This document shows, piece after piece, positions 1-45,263 of a stretch of DNA of 64,000 nt (positions within the stretch are counted from its first letter, which is position 1; the number at the start of each line of letters is the position of its first letter). The notes under the pieces are model-generated. The model did not search any database, had not been told where the DNA came from, and worked only from the letters and a program-made list of their open reading frames with translations. The stretch covers positions 1,972-65,971 of the forward strand of contig CAYVXW010000005.1 in NCBI GenBank assembly GCA_964455585.1, read 5' to 3'. The DNA comes from an uncultured Christensenella sp. (GTDB lineage: Bacteria > Bacillota > Clostridia > Christensenellales > UBA1242). The position numbers and the translations under genes are program-made.

Positions 1-162
1 CATATTCAAAAAATTCGGTCTATTGTCGTTTGTTGCAGTTAGGGCCTCATCTATATAAGTCTTTACAAGATTTATTTTATTTTTTTCGCAATAATCTAAT
101 ATTGCTCGTTTTTGTGCCTCTATACTATAACCATCTCTTTGGTTTTCCGAACTATATCTCAT
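1..162 (-). CDS. Serine recombinase (integrase), N-terminal fragment running off the left edge
   Basis: Minus-strand translation from ATG at 162: MRYSSENQRDGYSIEAQKRAILDYCEKNKINLVKTYIDEALTATNDNRPNFLNM. It carries the resolvase-domain signatures Y-x-R-x-SS-x-x-Q, S-I-E-x-Q and RP-x-F. No ORF-track entry because it is truncated. Confidence 0.55.
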   Translation of the reverse strand, partial: MRYSSENQRDGYSIEAQKRAILDYCEKNKINLVKTYIDEALTATNDNRPNFLNM

Positions 163-217
163 ATATGCACAAGCATTTATTGTATTTTTAGGACTATACC
201 AAACATAATCTTTTGAA

Positions 218-8606: not shown

Positions 8607-9650
8607 ATGGAAATAAAAGATGCTGTAATTGATTTTGGGAGTATTCCATATGAAAGGAAGTTGCCGGAAAGGGCATTGTATCCTTTTAGCCAGTTGAACT
8701 ATTTAACTGGTGGAATGGAACTTGGAGAAATAACCGTTATTGCTGGTGAAACTGGTTCTGGTAAAACAACATTTGTTTCACAGGTTGTGGACAATATTAT
8801 AAAAGACGATAAAGTGTTTTGTGTTTATGGCGAAAGCACAATACAAAAACAACAGCAAAATACATATAGGCAAATGGCAGGTTATGGCAAAGAAAAATAT
8901 GAATATGTGTCTTACAAGAAGAATGGCAAAGATACAAATATTGGTGCTTATTTTGTAAACGAAGAAATTGAAAGGCAAATTAGAAATAAGACATCAAAAA
9001 AATTATTTTACTATGATACTCGATACGGAATGACGATAGATAAAATTTTGGAAGTAATTAAATTTTGTCACGAAAACGAAAGGGGAAAGATTAATTACTT
9101 TGTGTTGGATAACTTAATGCAAATAGAAACAACCACTGCAGATGAAATAAGAGAGCAGAAAGATTGTTTTGAAAAATTGCGAAGATATACAACTGAAAAC
9201 AATATTCACATTGTGGTTCTTGCACATTATCGCAAATCTGCTGATATTGGGGTTATTAGAAGAAATCTATCTGAAATCGCAGGAACAAGTGCCATAGGTA
9301 ATAAAAGTGCTACTGCATTAAATATTATGAGACTTGATAATGTCGACAAATCTGGCAAGGCATACAAGTCGTTAAAGGCAGTTGTAAAACTAAACAATTA
9401 TGATTTAGACCAAGCCGATGCAGTTATTGAAGTTCTTAAAAATCGTTTTAATAAATTAGGTTTTATTTGCCTTAAATACGATAGAATTTCAAACACATAT
9501 TATGAATGCCCAAAATTAGATGAAGAAAAGAAAGAAAGTGAAAAGTCAGTAGTCTATGAGACTAAACAAACATCAATCGACCTTATGCCAATGACAGAGT
9601 TGAGTGAAAAAGAGCAACAAGAGATTGATGATATTTTTGGAGATTTTTAA
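8607..9650 (+). CDS. DnaB-like replicative helicase (RecA-fold C-terminal domain)
   Basis: Walker A AGETGSGKTTF, Walker B-like YFVLDNL, and VLAHYRK. Sits in the replication module. Confidence 0.6.
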   Translation: MEIKDAVIDFGSIPYERKLPERALYPFSQLNYLTGGMELGEITVIAGETGSGKTTFVSQVVDNIIKDDKVFCVYGESTIQKQQQNTYRQMAGYGKEKYEYVSYKKNGKDTNIGAYFVNEEIERQIRNKTSKKLFYYDTRYGMTIDKILEVIKFCHENERGKINYFVLDNLMQIETTTADEIREQKDCFEKLRRYTTENNIHIVVLAHYRKSADIGVIRRNLSEIAGTSAIGNKSATALNIMRLDNVDKSGKAYKSLKAVVKLNNYDLDQADAVIEVLKNRFNKLGFICLKYDRISNTYYECPKLDEEKKESEKSVVYETKQTSIDLMPMTELSEKEQQEIDDIFGDF

Positions 9651-9662
9651 AAGGAGAATATT

Positions 9663-9848
9663 ATGGTTAAACAAAATAAAAGAGTTGTTGCAAACACAGT
9701 AATAACAAGAGAAAAAAATATTATAAAAAAGGCAGAATCCGATTTGGTAGATTTGAAAAATGCCGAATTGGACTTGACTCAATTTATTGCCGACCACAAA
9801 AAAATATTAGCAAGTTATGAGGAGACAAACAATGGAAAACAAGGTTAA
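9663..9848 (+). CDS. Hypothetical small protein
   Basis: ORF with RBS AAGGAG upstream. Confidence 0.35.
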   Translation: MVKQNKRVVANTVITREKNIIKKAESDLVDLKNAELDLTQFIADHKKILASYEETNNGKQG

Positions 9849-10116
9849 AAGTGCAAAGGTCTCTGATAAGTTAAAAAAAGAGAACGAAAAACTTAAGTTG
9901 GAAAATCAAAAATTGAGAGCAATAGCATTTTATCTTTTCAAAATTCATAGAGTTGCTCCAACGGGAAGAAAACTCAATAAGAGTGATGTTGAAATTGATA
10001 TTATGACTTTAGAAACTCTTGAGCATGTTATCAAAGAAAAAAACTCAAAACAAATTGAACAAGAATATAAACATGCGCTAACAAAAAGAATATTACAAAA
10101 AATTAAGAAAGGTTAA
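9832..10116 (+). CDS. Hypothetical coiled-coil protein
   Basis: Start placed at ATG 9832 behind GAGGAG. The track start 9817 is an alternative. Confidence 0.35.
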   Translation: MENKVKSAKVSDKLKKENEKLKLENQKLRAIAFYLFKIHRVAPTGRKLNKSDVEIDIMTLETLEHVIKEKNSKQIEQEYKHALTKRILQKIKKG

Positions 10117-10127
10117 TAGGTGAAAAA

Positions 10128-10310
10128 ATGAATGTAAGAGAAGCTATGGAGAAAAAGGGTAAATTAATCACAAGTCTTGACGAACTATTGACACAAGAAA
10201 ATGTTATTTTTGCAGGGAAACCAATTCCGATTTCGTGGTGTTATGGTTGGACACTGAAACAAGCAAAAAAGAACATAGATAGAAAACTTGTGTATGCCAT
10301 AAACGAATAG
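10128..10310 (+). CDS. Hypothetical small protein
   Basis: ORF in the operon; no motif recognised. Confidence 0.35.
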   Translation: MNVREAMEKKGKLITSLDELLTQENVIFAGKPIPISWCYGWTLKQAKKNIDRKLVYAINE

Positions 10311-10318
10311 GTTGCAGT

Positions 10319-12028
10319 ATGGCATACGGACAAATGAGTTTATTTGATGGCAGTAAAGATTTTGTGATAAATAAACCTATTAGATTAATTGAATTGTTTG
10401 CAGGATATGGTAGTCAGCACTTTGCTTTGAAATATCTAGGTTTAAATGTTGAAAGTTATAAAATTTGCGAATGGGCAGTTAAAAGTATTCAAGCTTATAA
10501 AGATGCACACTTTTCAAATGATAACACTGATTATTCTGAAACTTTGTCTTATGATGAAATTGTTCAATGCTTACTTAAATGGGGAATCAGTGCAAATTAT
10601 AACGAACCAATGGCAATAGACCAAATCAAAAGAATGGGTGAAGCAAAATGTAGACAAGTCTATAACAACATTAAAGCAACTCACAACCTAGTTAATATTC
10701 AACAAGTAAATGGTAAAGATCTTGAGATTGTTGATGTAGACAAATATACCTACATAATGACTTATTCGTTTCCTTGTCAAGATTTGAGTATGGCAGGGTT
10801 GAGAGAAGGTATGGCAAAGGGCAGTGGAACAAGAAGTGGGTTACTTTGGGAAGTTGAGAGAATTTTAGATGAAATTTCCTCAGCCGATAAAACTAAACTA
10901 CCACAAATTCTACTAATGGAAAATGTTCCAGAAGTTATAGGGAGTGCTAATATATCACATTTTGCTGATTGGTTAAAGAAATTGGAAGAGTTGGGTTATA
11001 GAAATTATAAACAAATACTTAATTCAAAAGATTATGGTGTCCCTCAAAACCGAGCAAGGTGCTTTATGATTAGTCTATTGGGTGATTACTATTATGGGTT
11101 TCCTCAGCCGATAAAACTAAATGACAAGTTAAAAGATATTCTCGAAGAGAATGTTCCAGAAAAGTATTATTTGTCTGAAAGAGCATTGAAAGGTTCTTTG
11201 AATACAAATTTTGCTTGTTCAAAACTTGAAAACAAACTGCCTAAAGACGGTATTATTCCTACACTTTGTGCAAGAGATTACAAGGATCCAAAATGTGTTA
11301 TGGTTGAAATTCCAAAGGTAAACATAAACGGAAAGGACTACGATGTTACGAAAAATTGCGAAAATTATATTGAGCGGCACCAAAAGGGTTTGTTAGATAT
11401 GGAGACTAGAGCATGGAAAGATAACAAAATCGCACCGACATTACACACAAATTGTGGAAAAACTAAAATTTTGGAAAGTCAAAATTTAAAAACAAAATTG
11501 TGTAACGACTTAATCACTAGTGGGAAAGTTAAGGAAGGTGATGTGATTAGACACTCGTATAGTTCAAGTCGTATGAAAAATTTTTATGTTTCTAATTCCG
11601 AAAACCCAGATTGCAGTCCAACACTTGATACAAGATGTGATTGCTTGGGTGTCGTTGTAAAAGTGAATAGCAATAATAAAAGATTACAAGACCTTGTTTC
11701 AAAGACACAATTTGGGGATGATACATTGGCTTTAGATTGTTATAACCAAACCACACATAAAGACTTTATGCAAACAATTAAAACTAGTATTGATACTAGT
11801 AATATGAATATGATTTATACCGATTATCGTATTCGAAAATTAACTCCTAGAGAGTGCTTTAGACTTATGGGAGTAAACGATATTGACTTTGATAAAATTG
11901 CTCAAAACCAATCAAATGCGAGTTTGTATCATCTTGCAGGAGATAGTATTGTTGTCAATGTCTTAATGGCAATTTTTAAACAAATGCTAAAAGGAGAAAA
12001 CAATGAAAACGACAAAATTACAAATTGA
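10319..12028 (+). CDS. DNA cytosine-5 methyltransferase with oversized target-recognition region
   Basis: Motif I LFAGYGS, IV SFPCQDLS, VI LMENV, VIII QNRARCF, IX RKLTPRECFRLMG, X AGDSIVVNV. About 260 aa lie between motifs VIII and IX. Confidence 0.85.
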   Translation: MAYGQMSLFDGSKDFVINKPIRLIELFAGYGSQHFALKYLGLNVESYKICEWAVKSIQAYKDAHFSNDNTDYSETLSYDEIVQCLLKWGISANYNEPMAIDQIKRMGEAKCRQVYNNIKATHNLVNIQQVNGKDLEIVDVDKYTYIMTYSFPCQDLSMAGLREGMAKGSGTRSGLLWEVERILDEISSADKTKLPQILLMENVPEVIGSANISHFADWLKKLEELGYRNYKQILNSKDYGVPQNRARCFMISLLGDYYYGFPQPIKLNDKLKDILEENVPEKYYLSERALKGSLNTNFACSKLENKLPKDGIIPTLCARDYKDPKCVMVEIPKVNINGKDYDVTKNCENYIERHQKGLLDMETRAWKDNKIAPTLHTNCGKTKILESQNLKTKLCNDLITSGKVKEGDVIRHSYSSSRMKNFYVSNSENPDCSPTLDTRCDCLGVVVKVNSNNKRLQDLVSKTQFGDDTLALDCYNQTTHKDFMQTIKTSIDTSNMNMIYTDYRIRKLTPRECFRLMGVNDIDFDKIAQNQSNASLYHLAGDSIVVNVLMAIFKQMLKGENNENDKITN

Positions 12029-34261: not shown

Positions 34262-35146
34262 ATGGGAGAAAATCAATTAATTGATATATCTATCAATGGC
34301 TATATGTTTAAGGGTTATTCAGACTTTACTTGTATTAACTCGAAAACTTATGTAGTCGAACCAGAGAGAGCAGACAATGGTTCAATGCCGGATATTAACA
34401 ACCATGTCACTTTCTTTGTTCCTAGAGTTCAAATATCTTTCAAGTATATGAAAATAAAAGATTATCAAAGATTTTTGGTTGCAATAGAACCAAATGAATT
34501 TGTGGTAAGTTATTTCGATTATACAAAAGGTGAAGTGGTTTATCACAAAATGTATTGCGAACCACAAGAGCTTGAAAAAATACACACATATCGACTAGAA
34601 GTTTTAGGCATTCTAAACAAAACAATTTCGTTAATCGGAACTCTTAACCCAATAGATACATTTGCTTTGACTTATAATGCAAATGGTGGTCTAGGTGGGG
34701 AAAGTGGTAGAACTTTCACAATGGGAGAATGGTTACATATTAGCACCGGTTCAAATATATCGAAAAATGGATATACACTAAAAGAGTGGAATACCAAACC
34801 CGATGGTAGTGGGTTGTCGATTATTCCTAATAGTTATAAGGTTGCAGAAGAAAGTAATTTGACTTTATATGCTATTTGGCAATCGACATCTGCCTATTCA
34901 ATTTCTTTCGATTACAATGGTATGACAAAAACCGAAACCGAGAAAGATGAAGATTGGATAACATCTAAAAGTGTTGTTTATAATCAATCGGTTGGAACTT
35001 TGCCACACCCAAACGTGGAAGGATACGACTTTTTAGGTTGGTATGTCTATACTGATTACGAACCAAGTAAATATGAAGACAATCAAACATATTCCGTAAA
35101 GGGTTCAATAACACTAAAAGCAAAATGGCAAGAGGTGGCTGAATGA
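34262..35146 (+). CDS. Distal tail protein with two Listeria-Bacteroides repeat domains
   Basis: Start ATG 34262 behind AAGGAG. LTYNANGGLGGES...GYTLKEWNTKPDGSG...LTLYAIW and ISFDYNG...GYDFLGWY...ITLKAKW. Confidence 0.5.
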   Translation: MGENQLIDISINGYMFKGYSDFTCINSKTYVVEPERADNGSMPDINNHVTFFVPRVQISFKYMKIKDYQRFLVAIEPNEFVVSYFDYTKGEVVYHKMYCEPQELEKIHTYRLEVLGILNKTISLIGTLNPIDTFALTYNANGGLGGESGRTFTMGEWLHISTGSNISKNGYTLKEWNTKPDGSGLSIIPNSYKVAEESNLTLYAIWQSTSAYSISFDYNGMTKTETEKDEDWITSKSVVYNQSVGTLPHPNVEGYDFLGWYVYTDYEPSKYEDNQTYSVKGSITLKAKWQEVAE

Positions 35147-36327
35147 GTAAAATGGGGAATATGCCTAGAATAGAAATTAAATATTTGGTTGACATAGAAC
35201 TAGTTGTCAATTTGGCGAATAGCACACTAAATAACTCTATTGGACATTTATCCGACATTACCAATGATTCATATGCCCACAACAATTCTTCTTTCGATAA
35301 AGAAGGCAAAAAGGGGTTTTATTTAAGTGGTGGTTCGGTAGACAACAATGGCGAAGTTAGTGGTTGTATAATGGATGGCACTTATACTCTTTTTGATAGC
35401 AAGGGGTATGCTGGGGCAGTTGGAAATAGTTTTAGCAAAGATGATTACACTTTTGATACTGAACAATCTATAACTTTACAAGTTAAAAATTCAGATACAA
35501 CAATTAAGCATTTAGTTATATATTTCGATCCAGTTGCGAATGAATATGCCACACAATTATCTTTTAGCAGTGATAGTGCTACAACCATTAACAAAAATTC
35601 AAGACTTGTGTATTTTAAAAATTTTGGCGAAGAATCTAATCTAACATCGGTAAAATGCTCTTTCATAAAATGGAGTAAGAAAAATTCATTGGCAAAGGTT
35701 TTGAAAATAAAAACTGGCTTTACTGGAATTTACGATTATAAGACAATTAAAAAATTTGAATTGTCGGATGAAAAAGTGTCAAACGAGAACGAAATATCGT
35801 TTGGTGTAAGTAGTCAATATTGCGACTTAACTATATTGGATGACACGGGAGATGTCACATCGTTGTTCGGTGCAGATTTGCTATTGGAAAATATTACAGC
35901 ATTTTTCTATATAGTAAACACCAAAACTGCAACTGCCGAAGATGGAACAATTCACGAATTTGAGCAAAGAGAAAAAATTGGTGAACTTGTTATTGACAAA
36001 AAGAAGAATGTTGAGGGTTCAATTAGGTGGACTTATAACTTAATAGATAGACTTGAGCAGTTAAGATCGGTTATTTGTCCGGCATTAGATGTTCAAAACC
36101 GAACACTATATCAAATTATCAATCAAATCACAAGTGAGACAGGTATTGCAAACATTGTTTCGTGGTCTACCGAAGCAGAAGAACATTGCAAAAGTATTAA
36201 GATCGAAAGTTCCTTTATAAAACCAAATCAATATATGTTTGATGTTTTGGGCAAATGCTGTGAAGTCGGTTTGCTAAAAATGTTTATTAACCCAGATGGA
36301 CAATTAAGAATTGAAAGGGGGTTGTAG
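35143..36327 (+). CDS. Tail-associated/baseplate protein
   Basis: Positional call, after the Dit-like gene. Confidence 0.4.
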   Translation: MSKMGNMPRIEIKYLVDIELVVNLANSTLNNSIGHLSDITNDSYAHNNSSFDKEGKKGFYLSGGSVDNNGEVSGCIMDGTYTLFDSKGYAGAVGNSFSKDDYTFDTEQSITLQVKNSDTTIKHLVIYFDPVANEYATQLSFSSDSATTINKNSRLVYFKNFGEESNLTSVKCSFIKWSKKNSLAKVLKIKTGFTGIYDYKTIKKFELSDEKVSNENEISFGVSSQYCDLTILDDTGDVTSLFGADLLLENITAFFYIVNTKTATAEDGTIHEFEQREKIGELVIDKKKNVEGSIRWTYNLIDRLEQLRSVICPALDVQNRTLYQIINQITSETGIANIVSWSTEAEEHCKSIKIESSFIKPNQYMFDVLGKCCEVGLLKMFINPDGQLRIERGL

Positions 36328-36330
36328 GAT

Positions 36331-37494
36331 ATGTCGGATATTATTTTAATGCCAAATCAATACAAAAACCTTGAAAGTTTTCTGGGTGAAAGAAACAAGG
36401 TGTCTATGGTTGTTGGAAAAGAATACAAGATTGACACAAGCAATGTTTTTGAAATTTCTGCTGGAGCAAAAAATTTGAGCATTGGCACAAAAACTTATGT
36501 TTATTCTTGGGCGGCTCTTGATGCATCAAACCTATTTGGAACACATTGGAGAGTTAGGGAAGAGTTTTGTGTTGTATCTGGAAGTTATTCATTTGCATAT
36601 ACACCAACAAATGAAAGTTTTGATATAAATAGTGTTGTTGCTAGTTATGAACTAAAATACAATAAATATCATAAAGGTTCTAACCCTGTAAATGGTAATA
36701 ACTGGACAAGTTATAAGTGTGTGTTTAGTTCAATTAAGTCTAGTAGCAACTTGGAGAAGGGTGACTACTCAAATGAAGATTGGGATAGTGATAATGAATG
36801 TTGGAAAACAAGTGGAATGATTGAGCATTCAAGGGGCAAGGTGTCGAATTGGCTTGGACAAGAAAGTTATACAGATTCGTTGTATTATCCATCTCAATAT
36901 GTAAATATAAGATTTTCGCATAGGGTTTACAACTCTTCGACACAATTAACTACTTATTATTTTAATGTAAATTATCGTTTTGTATCTGCTACTGGTTGGA
37001 GTAAACACTATCAAGGTTTCTTTAGTGGCAATGATAATTCATATTATAGGGAAGTTCAAGAAGCAATAATAACAATCAAGGCTTGCAGTGTCACATCGGA
37101 AGAAATAAACAAAAGTGTTGGTATTGGAACACAAAAAATTACTCTTCAAACAAATGAATTAATGCAATCTTCAATGAGCAGTTCGACATCTTTGTTTGAT
37201 ACCACTGCAAATCAAATAATTGATGCATATTCAAACAATAGGTTAATTGTCACATTAAAACTGCTTGAAATTAAGCAATACACAATCAATGGCGAAACTC
37301 GGATGTTGAGAGCTGGAGATAAAGTCAAAATTAAAAACAATAAAGATAAATTTATTAGTGAATATACGAAATTGCAAAACAACGAAACTATCATTGATGG
37401 AAACGAATTTGAAATAATCAAAATTGCAAATTGTTATGAAGGGAAATTTTATAAACAATTGACCTTGAGAGAAGTCTTGAGAGAAGATCAATAA
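36331..37494 (+). CDS. Tail/baseplate protein
   Basis: Positional call. Confidence 0.35.
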   Translation: MSDIILMPNQYKNLESFLGERNKVSMVVGKEYKIDTSNVFEISAGAKNLSIGTKTYVYSWAALDASNLFGTHWRVREEFCVVSGSYSFAYTPTNESFDINSVVASYELKYNKYHKGSNPVNGNNWTSYKCVFSSIKSSSNLEKGDYSNEDWDSDNECWKTSGMIEHSRGKVSNWLGQESYTDSLYYPSQYVNIRFSHRVYNSSTQLTTYYFNVNYRFVSATGWSKHYQGFFSGNDNSYYREVQEAIITIKACSVTSEEINKSVGIGTQKITLQTNELMQSSMSSSTSLFDTTANQIIDAYSNNRLIVTLKLLEIKQYTINGETRMLRAGDKVKIKNNKDKFISEYTKLQNNETIIDGNEFEIIKIANCYEGKFYKQLTLREVLREDQ

Positions 37495-37508
37495 AAGGAG
37501 AAAGTTAT

Positions 37509-38393
37509 ATGAGTGCATGGGAACAAAAACCGGAATATACCGAACTTGAAGAAATATTTTCAGAACAAACAACCAATAAAATCGGTTTAACTGCCGAGCA
37601 ACTTAATATAGTATTACATAATATTAGATACTTAAAGAACCATTTAGGTCTTGCAGATGTCGAAATGGGTGTTATGGAAACTGTGTATACGGAACCGGGC
37701 TCACCATTTGATGTTGTGATAACACACAGGGAAGAAAGTCAAGGTGAAGGTGTAAATAAAGTTGATTATTTCGATTTCAAATTTTACATTGCAGTTGCAA
37801 AGATAGAAACCGAAGCCAATGCGATTATTTCTGAAAACACAAATGAAGTTAAAGCAACTATTGAAAATACAAAGTTGTCAGATATGACAGGTTATAAGTT
37901 TAAGTTTAACTTTACAATTCCGAGAGGTTTGCAAGGAACAAAAGGTGCAGGTTTTAGGAATAAAGGAACTTATAACTCCGAGACAACCTATGTAAATAAC
38001 GATATTTATATAGACTATGTTAATTATAATGGTAGTTTGTATTGCCCAAAAGTCGAAGAAACAATAGGACACGAACCAACTGAAACTGATTACTGGACAT
38101 TAATGGTTGCCAAAGGTGAACACGGAGTGAGTATTGTTGGTATAGAAAAAACCAAAACGGAAGGACTGGTTGACACCTATACCATATCATTTAGTGAAGG
38201 TGAACCATTTGTATTCGCAGTCACTAATGGAGACACTCCAGATGTTTCCGACAAAGAAGACAAGTCAAATAAGGTATCCGAAATATCAACATCCAATAAA
38301 ACAAGTGATGAAAAATATCCGTCTTGTTCGGCAGTTGCTAATTATGTCGATACAAAATTTGGAGAAATGGCAACATTGCTAGGTGAGGTGTAA
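37509..38393 (+). CDS. Tail fibre protein
   Basis: Short collagen-like GLQGTKGAG. Sits in the fibre module. Confidence 0.45.
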   Translation: MSAWEQKPEYTELEEIFSEQTTNKIGLTAEQLNIVLHNIRYLKNHLGLADVEMGVMETVYTEPGSPFDVVITHREESQGEGVNKVDYFDFKFYIAVAKIETEANAIISENTNEVKATIENTKLSDMTGYKFKFNFTIPRGLQGTKGAGFRNKGTYNSETTYVNNDIYIDYVNYNGSLYCPKVEETIGHEPTETDYWTLMVAKGEHGVSIVGIEKTKTEGLVDTYTISFSEGEPFVFAVTNGDTPDVSDKEDKSNKVSEISTSNKTSDEKYPSCSAVANYVDTKFGEMATLLGEV

Positions 38394-38394
38394 T

Positions 38395-38709
38395 ATGAAT
38401 GGAGAACAAGCTTTTACAACTCAAATAGATAGAATTAAGGAAAATATTAGCAATGCTTATATTAGAGCAGAACAAAAAGGTGCAACAATGCCTACCATAA
38501 AAAATAGCGACAATCTACCAAGCACAATTGAAAGCATAACTGCTGGTGGTAGTGGTGGTGGAAACTTTGAAAAAATGTATGTCACTCAAACTATAAGTGG
38601 AGATGGTTGCACACTTGCAATTTCTTCGAGTGGTAGTGAAGATGATGCCAAAATTGTTGGACAAATCGTTTCTGGTGAAAACGGAAAAATATACATAGTG
38701 GAGGTCTAA
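38395..38709 (+). CDS. Tail fibre-associated small protein
   Basis: Start ATG 38395. Contains a G-rich linker AGGSGGGN. Confidence 0.35.
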   Translation: MNGEQAFTTQIDRIKENISNAYIRAEQKGATMPTIKNSDNLPSTIESITAGGSGGGNFEKMYVTQTISGDGCTLAISSSGSEDDAKIVGQIVSGENGKIYIVEV

Positions 38710-38710
38710 A

Positions 38711-40015
38711 GTGAGTATAGATACAACCAAAAAGGTAAATGGAATATCTGTAAATGGAACAAATATGCAATTCGGTTCCGGTATAGATTCCAATATATTA
38801 CCAAGTAATATTAAAGAAGGTGTTAGCATTTTGGGTGTTGATGGAACATTCAAAGGTGGCACCTTACAAAACAAAACAATAAACATAACAAGGAATAAAA
38901 CGACCATTGTTACACCCGATGATGGATATTATGGTCTTGGACAAGTTGAAATCATAACAAAGGTTCAAGGCGGCAGTGGTGGAACATCGTCTGCAATCTA
39001 TGGGGTGTCTTGGGATAACGATGGCACAACAACAATGACAAGAACCGATGATGCTGTAGAAATGACTTATGCGATTTCAAACGGAAAAGTTGCAAGTGAT
39101 TTTGACAATGTGTTCCCATACAACGAAATGAAAAGAACAACAATAGACGGAAATGTATTTGTACATGTTCCTGCCATGTTCTTTAGGGTAACAGTTGATG
39201 AGGACAAAAAAATCACAGGTGTTGCAGTAAGTCAAACACAAGGTGAGGGTGATGACTGGTATGAAACAAGACCTTTCTATTACGGAGCCTATGGTGCATC
39301 TAGTGATGGTTCGGTATTAAAATCGGTTAGTGGTGCAAGTAGAAAATATTCTATTACAAGAGCAAATGCAAGAACCCAGGCAATGGCAGTTGGAACTGAT
39401 TATCACCAAAGAGACCTATATGCTGGAACAATACTTATGTTCTTGTGGTGGATAGAATTTGCAACCAAAAACTCGGCAAGTATTATGACAGGCACACAAT
39501 ATGACAAAACCACTGGCAATACCGATAGCATTTACAACGAAGAAGAAGGTGAAAATTTCTGTGTTAGTGGTTATAATACATCCACATCTCAAATGGTATG
39601 GCACGGAATTGAAGATTATATCGGAAATGGTCTTGAGTGGGAAGATGGAATTACCGGTAATGGTTCTTCTGGTGGAACTCAATATGTGAGTGATGACTAC
39701 ACTCTATATGACGATTATTCTGGTGGGAGCAAGATGTCAGAATTGTCGTTCAATTCTCCGACAACAAGTGGGAACTGTCTAGAGGCTCTTGGCTGGGATG
39801 AAGATCATCCATTCTTGGTTCAACCTATTGCAACACGAAGTGATGGTAGTTATGTGAGTGGGTTCTGCGACTATGGTTCGACTAGCAACAATATAGTCTC
39901 CTCCCGTGGGTGTAGCTACCCGTCGAGTGCCTACAGCGGGGTCTCTTACTTCGCTCGTCGCAATGTGTCGCCTTCGTATTCGGACATCGGTTGTCGCCTT
40001 CTATTAAATGCCTAG
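38711..40015 (+). CDS. DGR target protein: receptor-binding tail fibre with C-terminal FGE/C-type-lectin-like variable domain
   Basis: GTG start. IGNGLEWEDG (FGE-sulfatase-like motif). The C-terminal 36 codons form the VR, ending ...IGCRLLLNA. Confidence 0.85.
   Translation: MSIDTTKKVNGISVNGTNMQFGSGIDSNILPSNIKEGVSILGVDGTFKGGTLQNKTINITRNKTTIVTPDDGYYGLGQVEIITKVQGGSGGTSSAIYGVSWDNDGTTTMTRTDDAVEMTYAISNGKVASDFDNVFPYNEMKRTTIDGNVFVHVPAMFFRVTVDEDKKITGVAVSQTQGEGDDWYETRPFYYGAYGASSDGSVLKSVSGASRKYSITRANARTQAMAVGTDYHQRDLYAGTILMFLWWIEFATKNSASIMTGTQYDKTTGNTDSIYNEEEGENFCVSGYNTSTSQMVWHGIEDYIGNGLEWEDGITGNGSSGGTQYVSDDYTLYDDYSGGSKMSELSFNSPTTSGNCLEALGWDEDHPFLVQPIATRSDGSYVSGFCDYGSTSNNIVSSRGCSYPSSAYSGVSYFARRNVSPSYSDIGCRLLLNA
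39896..40005 (+). repeat. DGR variable region (VR)
   Basis: 110-bp alignment to 40089-40198 at a constant offset of 193. 16 mismatches fall at TR adenines and 2 do not. Confidence 0.85.
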
Positions 40016-40027
40016 ACAGGGGGCAGT

Positions 40028-40042
40028 GGGGGATATTCCCCC
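40028..40042 (+). promoter_or_regulatory. GC hairpin downstream of VR (GGGGGA-TAT-TCCCCC)
   Basis: 6-bp stem and 3-nt loop, about 22 nt after the end of VR homology. Confidence 0.6.
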
Positions 40043-40088
40043 AAATACAACCAATTACAATTAAATAAAATAAAGGGTATTTGTTGCT

Positions 40089-40198
40089 GTCTCCTACCGT
40101 GGTTGTAACAACCCGTCGAATGCCAACAACGGGGTCTCTTACTTCAATCGTAACAATGTGTCGAATTCGAATTCGAACATCGGTTGTCGCAATGTATT
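40089..40198 (+). repeat. DGR template repeat (TR), non-coding
   Basis: In the VR frame it reads V S Y R G C N N P S N A N N G V S Y F N R N N V S N S N S N I G C R N, with 12 AAY codons. Confidence 0.85.
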
Positions 40199-40326
40199 TC
40201 CAAAAGCATCAAAAAGAAAATTCGTTTTCAAGGCAACACTTATCCTATACCACTTGGTAGAAAACACTCCGAACTAGGAGTAGGTTAGTAAATAATTGAA
40301 AGCTTACTAGGGGAAATAGATGGTTT

Positions 40327-41406
40327 ATGAAAAGAGTAGGATATATTTATGAAAAGATTATTGATTTGCAAAATTTAGAGTTGGCAATTGTAAAAGCATG
40401 TGAACACAAAAAGAAAAATAAGTTTATTGTTCATTTGTTGGAGAATAAAAGTTCATATGCTCAAGAAATAAGAACTCTAATTTTACAGGAAGATTTCCAT
40501 CCTTTAATCATTAAACATAAGAAAATAAAAGAAAAGACCAAAGTAAGAGATATTGCAGTTCCAAAGTTTTATCCAGACCAAATTATTCATTGGGCAGTTT
40601 GTTTACAATTGAATCAGATATTTATGAAAGGTATGTATCATTACAATTGTGGCAGTGTTCCAAATCGTGGTGGAGTTTATGCTAAAAAATATATCGAAAA
40701 ATGTTATTCAATATTAAAAGAGAAAAAATCTTACACGTTGAAACTTGACATTAAAAAATATTTTTACAACATTTCACACGAAAAAATGGAAGAATTGTTT
40801 CGAGAAAAAATTAAAGATGAAAGAGTTCTTGAAATGCTACACAAAATTATTGATTGTGGGGAAGATGGTTTACCAATAGGGTTTTATACATCCCAATGGT
40901 TCGCAAATTTTTATCTTCATAGACTTGATAATTATATAAAACAAGTATTACAAATTAAATACTATATTAGATATGTAGATGATATGGTTTTAATTGATAC
41001 AAATAAACGAAAATTACACAAGGCAGTTGAAGAAATACAAAAATATCTCGATAACAATAGTTATTGTGTAACACTAAAAGATAATTGGCAGTTGTGGAAA
41101 ACCTTTTCTCGACCACTTGATTTTCTAGGATATAGGTTCTACAAAAATTATACATTGTTGAGAAAAGGAATTCTCAAGAAAATGAAAAGACAAATCTTGA
41201 GAGTTGGAAAAGAAAAGACTTTGAGAATATGTAGGGCAAGGGCATTGACTTCGTATATGGGTTGGTTAAAACAAACAAGCATATCAAGGAGTTTCTATGT
41301 CAAACATATTAGACCTACTTGCAGTAAAAAATGGGTTGGCAGAATAATATCACATGATAGTAAAAGGAGAAATAAAAATGATAATAAAAGACGGAACAAA
41401 CCCTAA
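40327..41406 (+). CDS. DGR reverse transcriptase
   Basis: RT motif 5 IRYVDDMVLI (YxDD). DGR-type motif 4 LPIGFYTSQWFANFYL. 359 aa, directly downstream of TR. Confidence 0.9.
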   Translation: MKRVGYIYEKIIDLQNLELAIVKACEHKKKNKFIVHLLENKSSYAQEIRTLILQEDFHPLIIKHKKIKEKTKVRDIAVPKFYPDQIIHWAVCLQLNQIFMKGMYHYNCGSVPNRGGVYAKKYIEKCYSILKEKKSYTLKLDIKKYFYNISHEKMEELFREKIKDERVLEMLHKIIDCGEDGLPIGFYTSQWFANFYLHRLDNYIKQVLQIKYYIRYVDDMVLIDTNKRKLHKAVEEIQKYLDNNSYCVTLKDNWQLWKTFSRPLDFLGYRFYKNYTLLRKGILKKMKRQILRVGKEKTLRICRARALTSYMGWLKQTSISRSFYVKHIRPTCSKKWVGRIISHDSKRRNKNDNKRRNKP

Positions 41407-41638
41407 AATTGAAAAATTAAAAACTAGGCTTGGACTGACTGGAGATGTCTATCTTTATAACAACCATTTTGTCGAGAATTTGGAAAGTCACAAAAGACTA
41501 ATTCCAAATAGCACTGCCACCACTATAAGTGAAGCATTTGTTGAGAGGGTTGAGTATGAAATTGAACAAGAGAAAATTCGAGAAGAAATGCAAAAAGAAC
41601 AAATTGCAGAAGGGGAAGAAAAACCAGTCGAGATATAA
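41378..41638 (+). CDS. Hypothetical acidic protein overlapping the RT 3' end
   Basis: ATG 41378 (track start 41354 is an alternative). No motif recognised. Confidence 0.35.
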   Translation: MIIKDGTNPKIEKLKTRLGLTGDVYLYNNHFVENLESHKRLIPNSTATTISEAFVERVEYEIEQEKIREEMQKEQIAEGEEKPVEI

Positions 41639-41760
41639 TATATCATTGTTTTATGAAAGTGTGAAAAATGGTATTTATAATTCTGGATATGTTCAACTCA
41701 CCCAAGAAGAATACGAAAAATTATTAAACAAGGACTAATTGTTCTTAAAAGGAGAAAATT

Positions 41761-42501
41761 ATGGAACCTTACGAAGATGAAGAGTTGGATAAAATTATTG
41801 AAGATAGGTTAAAGCAAAAAGAAGAGAAAGCACAAGAAGAGCAATCTCGTGATTTGCAACCTGTAGAAAGCAATAATATGAGTGTTTCTGAAACACAAAT
41901 TGAAATGCCTAATTTTATCCCACAAATTGATAAGTCAAAGGAATTAAGTGAACAAGCAAGTGATGTTGTTCAGATAATGGGAGCCCAAAAAGCATCAACC
42001 GACCAAAGTTTTATGGAAGATGTCTCAAAGAATTTCCAAAAAGGTGTTCTTACCGAGCAAGAAACAAAAAATATGAAAAAACAAAGATTGCTTGAACAAG
42101 AATACTTTCTAAAATGGAAAGATGTCTTGAACTTTGTTTTCATTAAGTCACCACATGGTTTACTTTTTATGAAGATAATGACTTTTATTGGTATGATTGT
42201 CTATATTCCAACTAGACTTGTGGGTATGATAATCAAAGCAGTTGGAATGGTTGGTGAATTTATAAACGAAATCTTTAACTCTGTCTTTGGTGGCAAGGGG
42301 AAATATTTGAGAGATTCCAATGGGAACCCAGTTTTAGATCCCGTGACAAAAAAACCATACATAGAAAAACAAGGATACAACTTGTTCGCAAAAATGCTAT
42401 TTGGCATTGTGATTGCAGGTTTGGCACTAGCATTAATATTCTTATTTGTCGAATTGTTCACTGGTTTCAGTGTATTCGGTTGGTTTAGAGAAATATTATA
42501 A
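41761..42501 (+). CDS. Membrane protein (acidic N-terminus, C-terminal TM segments)
   Basis: RBS AAGGAG. TM stretches LLFMKIMTFIGMIVYI and LFGIVIAGLALALIFLFVELF. Confidence 0.45.
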   Translation: MEPYEDEELDKIIEDRLKQKEEKAQEEQSRDLQPVESNNMSVSETQIEMPNFIPQIDKSKELSEQASDVVQIMGAQKASTDQSFMEDVSKNFQKGVLTEQETKNMKKQRLLEQEYFLKWKDVLNFVFIKSPHGLLFMKIMTFIGMIVYIPTRLVGMIIKAVGMVGEFINEIFNSVFGGKGKYLRDSNGNPVLDPVTKKPYIEKQGYNLFAKMLFGIVIAGLALALIFLFVELFTGFSVFGWFREIL

Positions 42502-42935
42502 TGTTTCCTACCGAGTTAAGAATATTTTATGAGCGACCAAAACCCAAAACATTTATTGAGTATATTATCGACCAAATAATAAATGGTCGTAATATAAATT
42601 TAGAAAAAAAGGAGGCCTTTGTAATGTTAGAACGTTTGCAAGAAAAGAAAGTTCAACTTAATGCAAGACTTGAGACTATTGGTGGTTCTCACGAAGAAGA
42701 AATCAAAGTTAAAGTTGCAGAATTTGAAGCAAAAATTCGTGAAGAGTTTGAAATTGCCGACAAAGTTGAACGAGAAAAAGTGATTAACCAACTTGAAATC
42801 GTTGAAGAATTAATCACTGAAGAAACTAACCGAGCAAATGAAGCTTTGGCAGATCAGTCAACTGACACAGAAACAACTGAACCAGTCACTGAAAATTACG
42901 ATCCAACAAACGAAATAAGTGTAGAAGGAGAATAG
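42501..42935 (+). CDS. Hypothetical acidic coiled-coil protein
   Basis: Alternative start ATG 42624 has a strong RBS AAGGAGG. Confidence 0.35.
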   Translation: MFPTELRIFYERPKPKTFIEYIIDQIINGRNINLEKKEAFVMLERLQEKKVQLNARLETIGGSHEEEIKVKVAEFEAKIREEFEIADKVEREKVINQLEIVEELITEETNRANEALADQSTDTETTEPVTENYDPTNEISVEGE

Positions 42936-42939
42936 TTTT

Positions 42940-43455
42940 ATGTGGAGAGAGATTTTTATGAGTGCATCAATATTGGCCTCAATAATTTTGGCAGTAGTTG
43001 GAATTTGTAAAACTCCATTCAAAACCTTTAAAGCAAAACATCCTAAAACTTATAGAGCAGTATTCTTTATACTATCATTGCTATTAGTAGTTGGTGGTAG
43101 CATAATCTCTGAACTATACATAATTGAGGGGCCATTGCTTTCGGTTGAGTTTGCAATTTTAATTATTTCCACAGGGTTTGTAGTATTCGGTGGATATGCT
43201 GGATATGAAAATCTTGGAATAAAGACACTAGTGCATAAGATTACTGGGGGCTTGAAAACTTTATTTTCAACATATAGCGATAGTAAAATCGCAAAGATGA
43301 TTGGACAAGTTGGTATGGATCGCATTAATGAAATATATAATGCAACCAATACAACAATAGTGGAAGAAAAAACAATTGAAACTAATGTTGTTGTGGAAGA
43401 ACCAAAACTTGAACCGGAAATCATCATTGATGAAAATAAACCAAATGAAAATTAA
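42940..43455 (+). CDS. Holin-like multi-TM protein
   Basis: Three to four hydrophobic segments (ILASIILAVVGIC, AVFFILSLLLVVGGSII, FAILIISTGFVVFGGYAGY). Last gene before the terminator. Confidence 0.4.
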   Translation: MWREIFMSASILASIILAVVGICKTPFKTFKAKHPKTYRAVFFILSLLLVVGGSIISELYIIEGPLLSVEFAILIISTGFVVFGGYAGYENLGIKTLVHKITGGLKTLFSTYSDSKIAKMIGQVGMDRINEIYNATNTTIVEEKTIETNVVVEEPKLEPEIIIDENKPNEN

Positions 43456-43470
43456 TAGTTAAAATAAAAG

Positions 43471-43500
43471 AATAGACATCGTAATGGTGTCTATTTTTTT
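43471..43500 (+). terminator. Rho-independent terminator
   Basis: ATAGACA-CGTAATGG-TGTCTAT followed by TTTTTTT. Confidence 0.65.
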
Positions 43501-43594
43501 ATCTATATTAAACGTGCTTCCTTTTTGCCTTTTTCTAATATTAATCTTAATACTAAACATTTAGAAATATTTACTAGTGATAATGGAATGTCAA

Positions 43595-43603
43595 GGGGGG
43601 GGG
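43595..43603 (+). repeat. Poly-G tract (9 G) upstream of the lipoprotein gene
   Basis: Read directly. Immediately followed by TATGAT, 65 nt before ATG 43668. Confidence 0.9.
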
Positions 43604-43667
43604 TATGATAGGGTTAGAGAATGTACTTTTTGCATTCAAAAATTTAAAAATTAAAAAAGGAGAAAAT

Positions 43668-45263
43668 ATGAAAGAAAAATTTAAAAAACTTTTAAAAATG
43701 TTCGCGATTTGCTGTATGGCGCTCATTTCGTGCTTCTCGATTTTTGCTTGTGGCGAAACACCTGACGACCCAGAAACTCCCGGCAGTGGAACTGAACAAG
43801 AATTGCCAGAAGGCGTTACAGGTACTCCTGTTACCGAGACTACTGCGGTTGATAAATTCAATCAATTGAAGACTGCAAGGGATGCAATGACTCCAAACAA
43901 CGGCTACACTTACACCGACGAAGGTACAACCAAAATGGAAGTAACACCAAACTGGGATGCTTTTGAGAGAAATAAAGTAGCAAAAATGGAAGGTGAAGAT
44001 GTTTCACTTGCCGATGATACTACTTTCACTGCATTCAAAGGTACCATTGATGCAGGTCTTTCTCGAATGAATGATGACTATTCTAGCAAAGAAATTATAT
44101 CTTACAATAGCACTACTAAAAATGGATATAATTTGTATGAATCTTCTAGTGGAGATAAGACATATGAAATTTCGGATATCGAAAATAATATGTTGTATGA
44201 TTATTCTAGCAATACATACACAGATAGTGGTAATAATACTCTAGAATACAAACGTAAATACAACATTGACCAAAACTACTATAACCAATTCACTTATGAC
44301 TTCTATGAAAATATGGAATATAGCGTTGGTGAGGTTCTAAAAGACACTTTGGAAGACACCGAAAGTTATCTAAGAAATGGCTTTGAATCAATGGGTCTTA
44401 CTTTTAGTGAAGATGACCTTGGATTTACTTTTGAAGAAGAAAACGGGCTTTATACTTTGGTTATCTATGCAAATGTAACAGATAAAACAATGAATTTCTA
44501 TGGTGAAAGCCTTACAGGTGCGGACTTTACAATGTCGCTAGTATTCAAATTTAATTCTACTATGCTAACAGAACTTAGTGCGGTTATGAACCTTGATGCA
44601 ACTATGGCTATGCCTGTAGGTCAAGATGCAAACGGAAATGACGTAAATCTTTCGATTGCTTTTGATATGGACAACACCCAAAAATTCACTTTCTCAAACA
44701 CCTATGACGCCGAGCACGCTCCAACGTACGTTGCTAGTGAGTTTGTAGGCGATGGCTATGATGATGGCGAACAAGTTGTAACAAATAATTCTTCAAATGT
44801 ATGTCTACATATTGGCGATTATGAGTTTGGAAATGTAGATTTTAAAATGGGAGATGCTTTAAATTATAGCGATCCTTGGATTTTTAGTGGTTTTGTTACA
44901 GGTGGACTAAACGGTATTACTTGGTATACCGACAAGGCTTGTACTCAAGCATTTATAGGAAATATGCCATCTTATGACATTAACCTTTATGCAAAATATA
45001 GTGATGCTTTGGCAAAATTGGATACCAATCACGTATTTGTTCTTGAAATGTATACAAGCAACTATGTTTCTAGTGTAGACTATGAGGCTTACAGTGAGCC
45101 TAGAATTGATGTAACTGAAAAAACAGGAACAGTTAACGCCGAATATTACACTTGTGCATATGTAAATGGCACAAAAGTAGAAGCAGGTCAAAGTTATACT
45201 CTAAATACAGGCCTAAACAAAATTATATTTGTTTACAATCCAGAATATTATTATTATTATTAA
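43668..45263 (+). CDS. Surface lipoprotein with C-terminal Listeria-Bacteroides repeat
   Basis: Start ATG 43668 behind AAAGGAG. Signal peptide with lipobox SIFAC|G. ITWYTDKACTQAF...INLYAKY. Ends in YYYYY. Confidence 0.7.
   Translation: MKEKFKKLLKMFAICCMALISCFSIFACGETPDDPETPGSGTEQELPEGVTGTPVTETTAVDKFNQLKTARDAMTPNNGYTYTDEGTTKMEVTPNWDAFERNKVAKMEGEDVSLADDTTFTAFKGTIDAGLSRMNDDYSSKEIISYNSTTKNGYNLYESSSGDKTYEISDIENNMLYDYSSNTYTDSGNNTLEYKRKYNIDQNYYNQFTYDFYENMEYSVGEVLKDTLEDTESYLRNGFESMGLTFSEDDLGFTFEEENGLYTLVIYANVTDKTMNFYGESLTGADFTMSLVFKFNSTMLTELSAVMNLDATMAMPVGQDANGNDVNLSIAFDMDNTQKFTFSNTYDAEHAPTYVASEFVGDGYDDGEQVVTNNSSNVCLHIGDYEFGNVDFKMGDALNYSDPWIFSGFVTGGLNGITWYTDKACTQAFIGNMPSYDINLYAKYSDALAKLDTNHVFVLEMYTSNYVSSVDYEAYSEPRIDVTEKTGTVNAEYYTCAYVNGTKVEAGQSYTLNTGLNKIIFVYNPEYYYYY

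Follow-up and report, generated by a model that had tools for sequence, protein, structure and literature searches.

Diversity-generating retroelements (DGRs) are recognized by the adenine-specific transfer of sequence from a template repeat (TR) to a variable repeat (VR) in a protein-coding gene, with a reverse transcriptase (RT) encoded alongside. The usual helper of the RT is Avd, a basic protein of ~128 residues that forms a helical-bundle pentamer. In the element of the Bordetella phage BPP-1, arranged mtd–avd–TR–brt, the target is the receptor-binding tail-fibre protein Mtd, which has a C-terminal C-type-lectin domain of the formylglycine-generating enzyme (FGE) type and carries VR at the extreme 3' end of its gene. 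Elements with no accessory gene (Architecture A1) make up 29% of catalogued DGRs, and one RT lineage ('Lineage 3') is without avd (Wu, Zimmerly et al. 2018, PMC5758913). Below, we describe a DGR in a 64,000-nucleotide stretch of DNA from an uncultured Christensenella sp. (contig CAYVXW010000005.1; the whole stretch is referred to as 'the window'), in which a target gene (38711–40015), the TR and an RT gene follow one another; features lie on the forward strand unless stated. We are highly confident that this is a functional-looking, accessory-free 'target–TR–RT' element (Architecture A1) on a ~45-kb temperate siphovirus-like prophage. The direct evidence consists of the repeat anatomy, the adenine bias, the concerted evolution of TR and VR, the signatures of the RT, the fold of the target, and the conservation and covariation of RNA pairings. 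The element itself is an ordinary DGR of a well-known class, one of tens of thousands, and brings no conceptual change; its lineage lacks Avd and keeps a structured RNA, RT-18, and a small protein encoded beside the RT.

With the Avd-less A1 elements the locus shares the target–TR–RT core and a Bacillota-associated phage or prophage host, the assignment being made here from gene layout (PMC5758913). No open reading frame (ORF) lies between the target and TR, and none of the cassette ORFs has an Avd match in Pfam, PHROG or NCBIfam. The TR–RT core is also without an HRDC, MSL or CH1 gene, with the caveat that an 86-residue ORF after the RT may be an unrecognized accessory gene. The initial annotation, made from the sequence alone, had called the DGR 'complete', which holds in the sense of the published Architecture A but not if Avd is expected. 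The Avd-dependent Architecture B of the BPP-1 type was rejected: avd is missing, and the sole extra ORF encodes an acidic protein (pI 4.9) whose model matches no PDB chain, Avd included. The likeness to BPP-1 extends to the tail-fibre receptor-binding target with its C-terminal FGE-type lectin domain and 3'-terminal VR, the adenine-specific transfer, an RT with IGxxxSQ, R74 and YxDD, a G/C hairpin 3' of VR, and a structured RNA between TR and RT with two duplexes (one between the TR 3' flank and the spacer, the other joining a stretch upstream of TR to one downstream of it). The window differs from BPP-1 in having no avd, with TR directly after the target gene; in a spacer that is the Rfam RNA RT-18, not a BPP-1-type RNA; in a hairpin stem of 5–7 bp with non-GRNA loops; in the low identity of the RT (local E 3e-21); in a target that shares only its fold with Mtd (10–14% identity); and in the small acidic ORF that follows the RT.

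The VR (39896–40005) aligns without gaps over 110 nt to the TR (40089–40198), and the pair is the largest direct repeat within 38000–42500. The location, the alignment and the 18 mismatches at the positions listed in the initial annotation were reproduced exactly, its '193 bp downstream' being the start-to-start spacing of two copies that are separated by 83 nt. Sixteen of the mismatches are at TR adenines, which account for 28 of the 110 bases (Fisher one-sided p=5e-10); on realignment they are thus concentrated at adenines rather than spread evenly over the four bases. Each of the 16 substituted adenines falls on the first or second base of an AAY, TAC or ATC codon in the reading frame of the target. 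The VR begins on a codon boundary and forms the final 110 nt of the ORF 38711–40015 ahead of the three last sense codons and the stop, so that the repeat lies inside a coding gene, with TR adenines at the first two codon positions and AAY codons, in the manner of a DGR. No second VR was found within the window. The two remaining mismatches are T40103→G (GGT to GGG), confirmed as silent at Gly400, and G40194→C. If the comparison is confined to the mutagenized core of VR (39896–39997, 102 nt, codons 396–429) and the TR core (40089–40190, 102 nt, with 25 adenines mostly within 11 AAY codons), 14 of the 25 adenines and one of the 77 other bases differ (p=1e-9). In 38001–40000 the local G+C content of the VR, 60% against 32% for the prophage, forms a spike that is a convenient marker of the VR; the TR reaches only 48%, because adenines stand where the VR has randomized bases.

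The 3' ends of the two repeats need separate consideration. The VR is followed by a flank that holds a boundary element and the stop codon (39998–40015; CTTC opposite AATG in the TR), and the TR by a flank resembling IMH* (40191–40201), the counterpart of the initiation of mutagenic homing (IMH) sequence, which includes UAUUUCC at 40195–40201. The differences at TR positions 40191, 40192 and 40194 recur identically in the relatives L002, L004 and L005, whose VRs end in GGTTGTCGC followed by CTTCTATTAAATGCC and whose TRs end in GGTTGTCGC followed by AATGTATTTCCAAA; a further relative, L006, keeps CTTC (CTTCTA) in its VR opposite a different TR flank, TAAATA. There are 0 of 18 differences in 39998–40015 among the window, L002, L004 and L005, and Leu430 (CTT) is invariant among 101 target homologues. 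The sequence GGTTGTCGC (39989–39997) forms the G/C-rich end of homology directly before the boundary element. Since the last three mismatches are fixed in the relatives and Leu430 is invariant, the comparison indicates that they are markers of a fixed 3' transfer boundary (IMH versus IMH*-like) and not products of mutagenesis; the CTTC flank behaves like an IMH. The count of 16 mismatches at TR adenines given in the initial annotation is correct as a count, but two of them (40191 and 40192) belong to the boundary and not to mutagenesis, and the same applies to G40194→C, which had been listed as a separate exception.

Further support for adenine-specific transfer comes from the close relatives L002–L007, whose target proteins are 71–93% identical to that of the window and which each have a TR/VR pair of their own. 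A comparison of five elements (the window, L002, L004, L005 and L006) stands in for read-level heterogeneity. All 25 TR-adenine columns of the VR are variable across the five. Between the closest pairs, sites opposite a TR adenine differ at 60–64%, other VR sites at 1–4%, and the 474 nt of target gene directly upstream of VR at 14–21%, with the TRs differing at merely 1–2 of 102 nt. Each VR agrees with its own TR at non-adenine sites (0–2 mismatches), even where the TRs have diverged by 12–24 nt. In a pooled set of 14 representative loci (12 lineages defined by duplex sequence, plus the close relatives L005 and L006), 215 mismatches are at adenines and 8 elsewhere (p~1e-148). Heterogeneity is thus limited to TR-adenine positions, and the TR is stable, across five related prophages; the adenine-specific TR-to-VR transfer that had been proposed for the window is borne out there and in its relatives. 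The pattern is that predicted for repeated overwriting of VR from TR with randomization at adenines, and neither drift nor selection by itself produces it.

Some individual relatives depart from this picture. In L006 (71% identical; 9590–10577) two ORFs (146 and 172 residues) stand in place of a single RT gene, the C-terminus of the enzyme is cut short, and there is no small ORF; the cassette looks as if it is decaying. L007 (5035–5150) encodes the same protein as L006, and its TR differs from that of L006 at two adenine positions, where it equals the VR bases, which would be either an assembly chimera or VR-to-TR conversion. The RT of L008 (4384–5577), from a metagenome-assembled genome (MAG) of a Ruminococcus sp., has NMDN instead of the catalytic YVDD, and the locus still has RT-18, the small ORF and a TR/VR pair with a clean adenine bias; the enzyme may have been inactivated recently, or this may be a sequencing error. 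In the RT-18 loci L019, L020 and L029 (~1930–2370 in each), an extra repeat copy spaced 147–150 nt from the TR shows numerous non-adenine differences and may be a tandem TR-like copy or a second, degenerate VR. The 19 non-adenine mismatches in L025 suggest that its pair has decayed. Relatives were not found by a megablast search of 35000–45000 against GenBank phages, nor by a search of IMG/VR for the exact TR-boundary pattern; the sole relatives from a search of genome contigs are ~41% identical and are found in Ruminococcus, Phascolarctobacterium and Firmicutes CAG:238 assemblies.

The RT is encoded at 40327–41406 (359 residues), starting 128 nt past 40198. This location and the YVDD and DGR-type motifs named in the initial annotation were confirmed: the protein has R74, I76, D141, I184-GFYTSQ190 and Y216-VDD219 and contains LPIGFYTSQWFANFYL. 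The signature of DGR RTs is [I/V/L]GxxxSQ as against QGxxxSP (PMC7826257); the protein in the window has IGxxxSQ and not QGxxxSP. It matches Pfam RVT_1 (1.8e-14) and the phage RT family phrog_1423 (3.5e-87). Its best solved relative is 8ub7_A (328 residues, E 3.4e-21), followed by RTs of the group II intron and retron types at ~1e-11. The numbering of residues in 8ub7 (I181, Q187 and YMDD 213–216) equals the published numbering of Brt (PMC3240598, PMC7826257), and the chain is therefore the BPP-1 RT (bRT). Both the signature and the best PDB match point to an RT of the DGR clade. R74 and I184 correspond to R74 and I181 of bRT; it should be noted that R74 and I76 were matched to R74 and I76 of bRT by position, as the local alignment begins at residue 76. 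An identity as a group II intron, retron or Drt RT was rejected, the NCBIfam scores being far under their cut-offs (90 versus 300, 64.6 versus 235 and, for Drt3a, 67 versus 200) and no associated RNA being present: Rfam scans gave neither an intron RNA nor a retron msr/msd, the sole match being RT-18.

The target gene encodes a phage tail-fibre or receptor-binding protein of 434 residues. This assignment comes from the ORF, an AlphaFold2 (AF2) model and Foldseek, the protein having no match in Pfam, PHROG or NCBIfam; none of the 401 homologues in its family is annotated. The model, built from 101 sequences, has a predicted local distance difference test score (pLDDT) above 90 across residues 95–434 and low confidence in the N-terminal ~95 residues. 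In PDB its top match is the Thermus aquaticus protein TaqVP (5vf4, E 2e-6, probability 1.0), followed by Mtd (1yu4, 4e-3) and then by PvdO, FGEs, EgtB and TvpA, all of the FGE-subtype C-type-lectin fold, so that the comparison with the Mtd/TvpA and FGE folds suggested in the initial annotation came out as expected. Residues ~95–434 are thus predicted to be an FGE-type C-type-lectin domain, and the model and its matches give the VR the lectin scaffold on which DGRs display it. TaqVP (5VF4) and Treponema TvpA (2Y3C) share with the target the C-terminal position of VR, TaqVP being the best structural match; they differ from it in being cellular proteins and not phage fibres, in having ~13% sequence identity and in a template modelling (TM) score of ~0.4 over the whole chain. 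The link to TaqVP by family profile is weak (5vf4, E 0.1, via a GNxxEW-type motif). The best matches in BFVD, a collection of predicted viral structures, carry the annotation 'tail collar fiber' and come from uncultured phages of the gut, some of them crAss-like; their TM scores are 0.65–0.68 and their identities 24–26%. DGR-targeted fibres of this type (e.g. in crAssphage LMMB, PMC7290462) have the same ecological setting (human and animal gut samples and MAGs), but they belong to different phage groups and have different N-terminal attachment domains. The VR codes for the final 39 residues of the target, and the 14 adenine-bearing codons in the core (11 AAY, 2 TAC and 1 ATC) allow up to ~5e14 peptide variants.

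Beyond the VR there is a G/C hairpin or cruciform, TGGGGGA-TAT-TCCCCCA (40027–40043), recognized by DNA folding (-9.8 kcal/mol, z -2.25) and by conservation. Its first base is 21 nt from where homology ends and 29 nt from the transfer boundary, and it is not terminator-like, a T-run being absent. All the relatives examined (L002, L004, L005, L006, L008 and L009, of which the last two are ~41% identical) retain a G5/C5 stem whose loop varies, the stems being mostly 5–7 bp (8 bp in L008). In the elements described by Guo 2011, hairpins lie 4–34 bp after VR and have stems of 7–10 bp and GRNA loops (PMC3240598). The G/C-rich end of homology, the diverged IMH/IMH* flanks and the downstream inverted repeat of a DGR target site are thus all found here, with loops that are not GRNA.

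The spacer between TR and RT contains the structured RNA RT-18 (Rfam RF03021) at 40248–40321, which cmscan matched over model positions 1–84 of 84 with 52.8 bits against a gathering score of 41.3, and which terminates 5 nt ahead of the RT start codon. A full-model match directly upstream of an RT gene agrees with the description of the family (PMC5737381); the Rfam model does not include the two long-range TR-flank pairings described below. RT-18 is in the same position between TR and RT in 27 further retrieved relative loci (e.g. L016, 2409–2493, and L008, 4294–4374). It was found in 7/7 relatives from protein and genome searches, in 19/36 of the loci that the RT retrieved from IMG/VR (essentially every one with an RT identity of at least 33%), and in 2/4 new loci retrieved with the small ORF, one of which, L055, is on the same contig as the target gene of L001. 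When 26 RT-18 loci (the window and 25 from the protein/genome and IMG/VR RT searches) were searched for repeats, 22 had a clean adenine-biased TR/VR pair, ending 32–53 nt upstream of RT-18. The discoverers of these RNAs made an explicit connection to a DGR for RT-10 alone and were speculative on the rest (Weinberg et al. 2017, PMC5737381). The comparisons made here identify RT-18 as the TR–RT spacer RNA of an Avd-less DGR clade, a newly assigned role for an orphan Rfam family. RT-17 (RF03020) overlaps RT-18 in L009 and L011–L013, and the two families may describe one RNA. In two distant relatives of the RT, L045 and L046, the 'Phage_DGR' RNA (RF03022) is found in place of RT-18.

Folding of the spacer as a single sequence is uninformative (z -0.6), and its structure emerged from comparative analysis only. 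Two long-range duplexes are supported by covariation. The first encloses the TR, pairing AGGGUA..UGUUGCU directly upstream of it (40074–40088) with GGCAACA..UAUCCU (40232–40246); across 12 lineages the cognate strands have a mean of -17.8 kcal/mol and a 9.2-bp helix, against -11.5+-0.7 kcal/mol and 6.8+-0.3 bp when permuted. The second, a priming-type duplex, pairs the template strand UAUUUCC in the TR flank (40195–40201) with GGAAAUA in the 3' tail of RT-18 (40312–40318), with values of -12.2 kcal/mol and 8.5 bp for the cognate and -8.4+-0.7 kcal/mol and 6.6+-0.4 bp for the permuted strands. For each duplex, 0 of 20,000 permutations reached the cognate value. In other lineages the pairing of TR flank and RT-18 tail is made by different yet complementary sequences (e.g. 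CCUUUUAAG/CUUAAAAGG, UUUGUUUGC/GCAAACAAG and UUCUUAUCC/GGAUAAGAA). The 3' end of the tail strand is set against the last TR bases, the same geometry as in the TR:Sp priming duplex of BPP-1 (preprint 10.1101/2023.10.23.563531); the 'stop' duplex of BPP-1, between upstream and downstream sequences, has been surveyed solely in Avd-containing DGRs (10.1101/2023.10.23.563531). By analogy, the two duplexes in the window may have priming and stop roles, and the covariation shows that both long-range pairings known from cryo-electron microscopy of the Avd-dependent Bordetella element exist also in Avd-less elements.

After the RT there is a small ORF (41378–41638; the mechanical ORF runs from 41354), recognized by synteny, that overlaps the 3' end of the RT gene and encodes an acidic protein of 86 residues (pI 4.9). 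Homologues occupy the same position in L002, L004, L005, L008, L009 and L011–L015, and the first 58 residues are 53–68% identical in L005, L008, L009 and L011–L015; in L008, L009 and L011–L015 the identity of the RT falls to 28–43%, and conservation is not detectable in any other flanking phage gene. A search with the small protein gave nine IMG/VR loci, in 9/9 of which a DGR-type RT ends ~35 nt upstream. Three further members of the family gave seven places for comparison, in 7/7 of which an RVT_1 gene adjoins or overlaps the ORF, with different genes downstream. The family has at least 360 members, none annotated, on several unrelated phage backbones. The protein has no match in Pfam, PHROGs or NCBIfam, and its AF2 model (pLDDT 86.5; an alpha/beta unit and a long helix) has no fold match in PDB; an Avd-like identity was rejected on the grounds of its acidity, its alpha/beta fold and the lack of a PDB match. 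Among described accessory genes, the CH1 class encodes acidic proteins of 160–169 residues, and there are 'potential accessory genes' PAG1-4 (Wu et al. 2018, PMC5758913). The small protein would be an as yet undescribed accessory factor or, alternatively, a partner of this fibre family. In other phages with members of the family (L057–L060), proteins of 2460–2819 residues with an ART-PolyVal domain (at ~7150–7297 in L057–L059 and 4625–4760 in L060) are encoded some kb downstream from the cassette.

These features can be arranged in a scheme, in which transcription, cis-priming, current activity and a receptor-binding role are what we infer. An RNA of ~40074–40321 would be transcribed, probably by read-through from the late tail operon, a route made probable by the finding of no sigma-70-type promoter between VR and TR. 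Within this RNA the TR would be enclosed by the long-range duplex 40074–40088/40232–40246, followed by the RT-18 domain, whose 3' tail, paired with the TR 3' flank, would bring the 3' end of TR into the active site of the RT, where cDNA synthesis could be primed in cis, as with the TR:Sp duplex of the Bordetella phage. The RT would copy the TR faithfully except at adenines, where any base could be inserted, and the cDNA would replace 39896–39997 in the fibre gene, the homing target being defined by the G/C-rich homology end GGTTGTCGC, the divergent 3' flank and the hairpin. The outcome would be 14 codons randomized within the last 39 residues of the receptor-binding domain, whereby the phage could re-tune receptor recognition.

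Several points weigh against this scheme. T40103→G points to an ordinary mutation (one at the least) that came after the last homing event, or else to an infrequent error of the RT; cassettes of this kind can be inactive, as the decay in relatives (the split RT of L006 and NMDN for YVDD in L008) illustrates; the hairpin stem is shorter than in BPP-1-type elements, and its loops are unlike their GRNA consensus; a promoter for the TR RNA was not detected; and the priming role is assigned by geometric analogy only, with a helix in the window of 7 bp that shares 2 nt with a stem of RT-18. Some of these would suit a relic, i.e. a DGR that was formerly active and is now inert in this prophage, with VR frozen and subject to ordinary mutation only: the one non-adenine mismatch in the core, the lack of a detected promoter ahead of TR, and the decayed relatives, of which L006 has also lost the small ORF. 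We consider a relic improbable. The RT ORF in the window is unbroken and has its full set of catalytic and DGR-signature residues; the TR, the hairpin, RT-18 and both long-range pairings are likewise intact, and non-adenine drift is 1/77, against 14–21% in the adjoining gene sequence between close relatives; such low drift beside so much divergence favours recent overwriting. The DGR in this prophage is probably active, as judged from the sequence. It might also be supposed that the fibre 3' end was simply duplicated or gene-converted beside an unrelated RT, with the bias arising from composition or selection, and the RT does give sub-threshold group II, retron and Drt matches, as any RT would. 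The bias, however, is directional and adenine-specific in the 14 representative loci, the TRs are constant while the VRs vary, the RT has IGxxxSQ rather than QGxxxSP with bRT as its best match, and Rfam scans gave no intron or msr/msd RNA. The TR/VR comparisons among relatives and the pooled bias effectively refute a chance duplication, for which we see almost no probability left.

The RNA and the small protein of this Avd-less lineage may constitute a distinct ribonucleoprotein, in which RT-18 and the two TR-bracketing duplexes replace the BPP-1 spacer in cis-priming and termination, and an acidic protein of 86–98 residues, translationally coupled to the RT, replaces Avd. This is a tentative proposal, which we regard as rather doubtful; if it is true, a function would follow for the orphan RT-18 and for no fewer than 360 proteins that lack annotation, and a compact DGR free of Avd would be at hand for engineering. 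A competing explanation for the protein, to which we give a little less than an even chance, is that it stands outside the DGR machinery and is a fibre-associated protein (an assembly chaperone or adaptor) that travels with the cassette. The small ORF is limited to the sub-lineage in which the target is clearly homologous to that of the window (at least 38% identity) and is absent from the RT-18 DGRs with distant targets (L016–L032), and the protein is acidic, unlike Avd, and has no Avd-like fold. Against a fibre-associated role, the TR and the RT separate the small ORF from the fibre gene, the ORF invariably adjoins or overlaps the stop codon of the RT gene, and L006, with its broken RT, is without it.

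With the cassette read as an active DGR, the prophage can re-target its receptor-binding tip through 14 codons and ~5e14 possible variants. For the lineage, DGR function without Avd becomes directly testable, and a smaller cassette for directed-evolution tools could result. The points most worth following are RT-18 as a spacer RNA, the covarying duplexes in the Avd-less clade, and the small protein coupled to the RT.

The genomic setting agrees with the claim that the DGR is at the end of the fibre module of a prophage, with phage structural genes upstream and host genes downstream. Phage genes in the window encode a repressor, an SbcC-like protein, a methyltransferase, terminase, portal, major head, major tail, tape measure and baseplate-like proteins and a tail fibre (37509–38393); the target gene is the next after the last of these and the final gene of the tail module. 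Three small ORFs follow the cassette, and homology to phage relatives stops at ~43601, the right prophage junction. Beyond it is an ORF of 552 residues (43605–45263) with a lipoprotein-like signal (…FSIFACGETPDD), which matches no family and has no counterpart among the phage relatives; its product is probably a surface lipoprotein of the host, encoded beside the attachment (att) site. No tRNA genes were found. From 45347 on there are the bacterial housekeeping genes pcrA, ligA, priA, fmt, rsmB, rlmN, rsgA and rpe. The prophage (~45 kb) has 32.4% GC and the host flank 39.6%, with the standard code. Of the description of the host as a low-GC Firmicute or Mollicute-like organism, the former is plausible, relatives being found in Bacillota assemblies; the organism has ~40% GC, the standard code and a Bacillota-like gene order, and 'Mollicute-like' has no specific support. 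At the left end, positions 1–217 (reverse strand) hold the N-terminal part of a large serine recombinase gene, with 92% DNA identity to 14255–15753 of L004, a relative in circular form. As position 1 of the window is inside a recombinase gene of the L004 type, the prophage begins ~1.4 kb to the left of the window, and the integrase and attL would lie just beyond its left edge.

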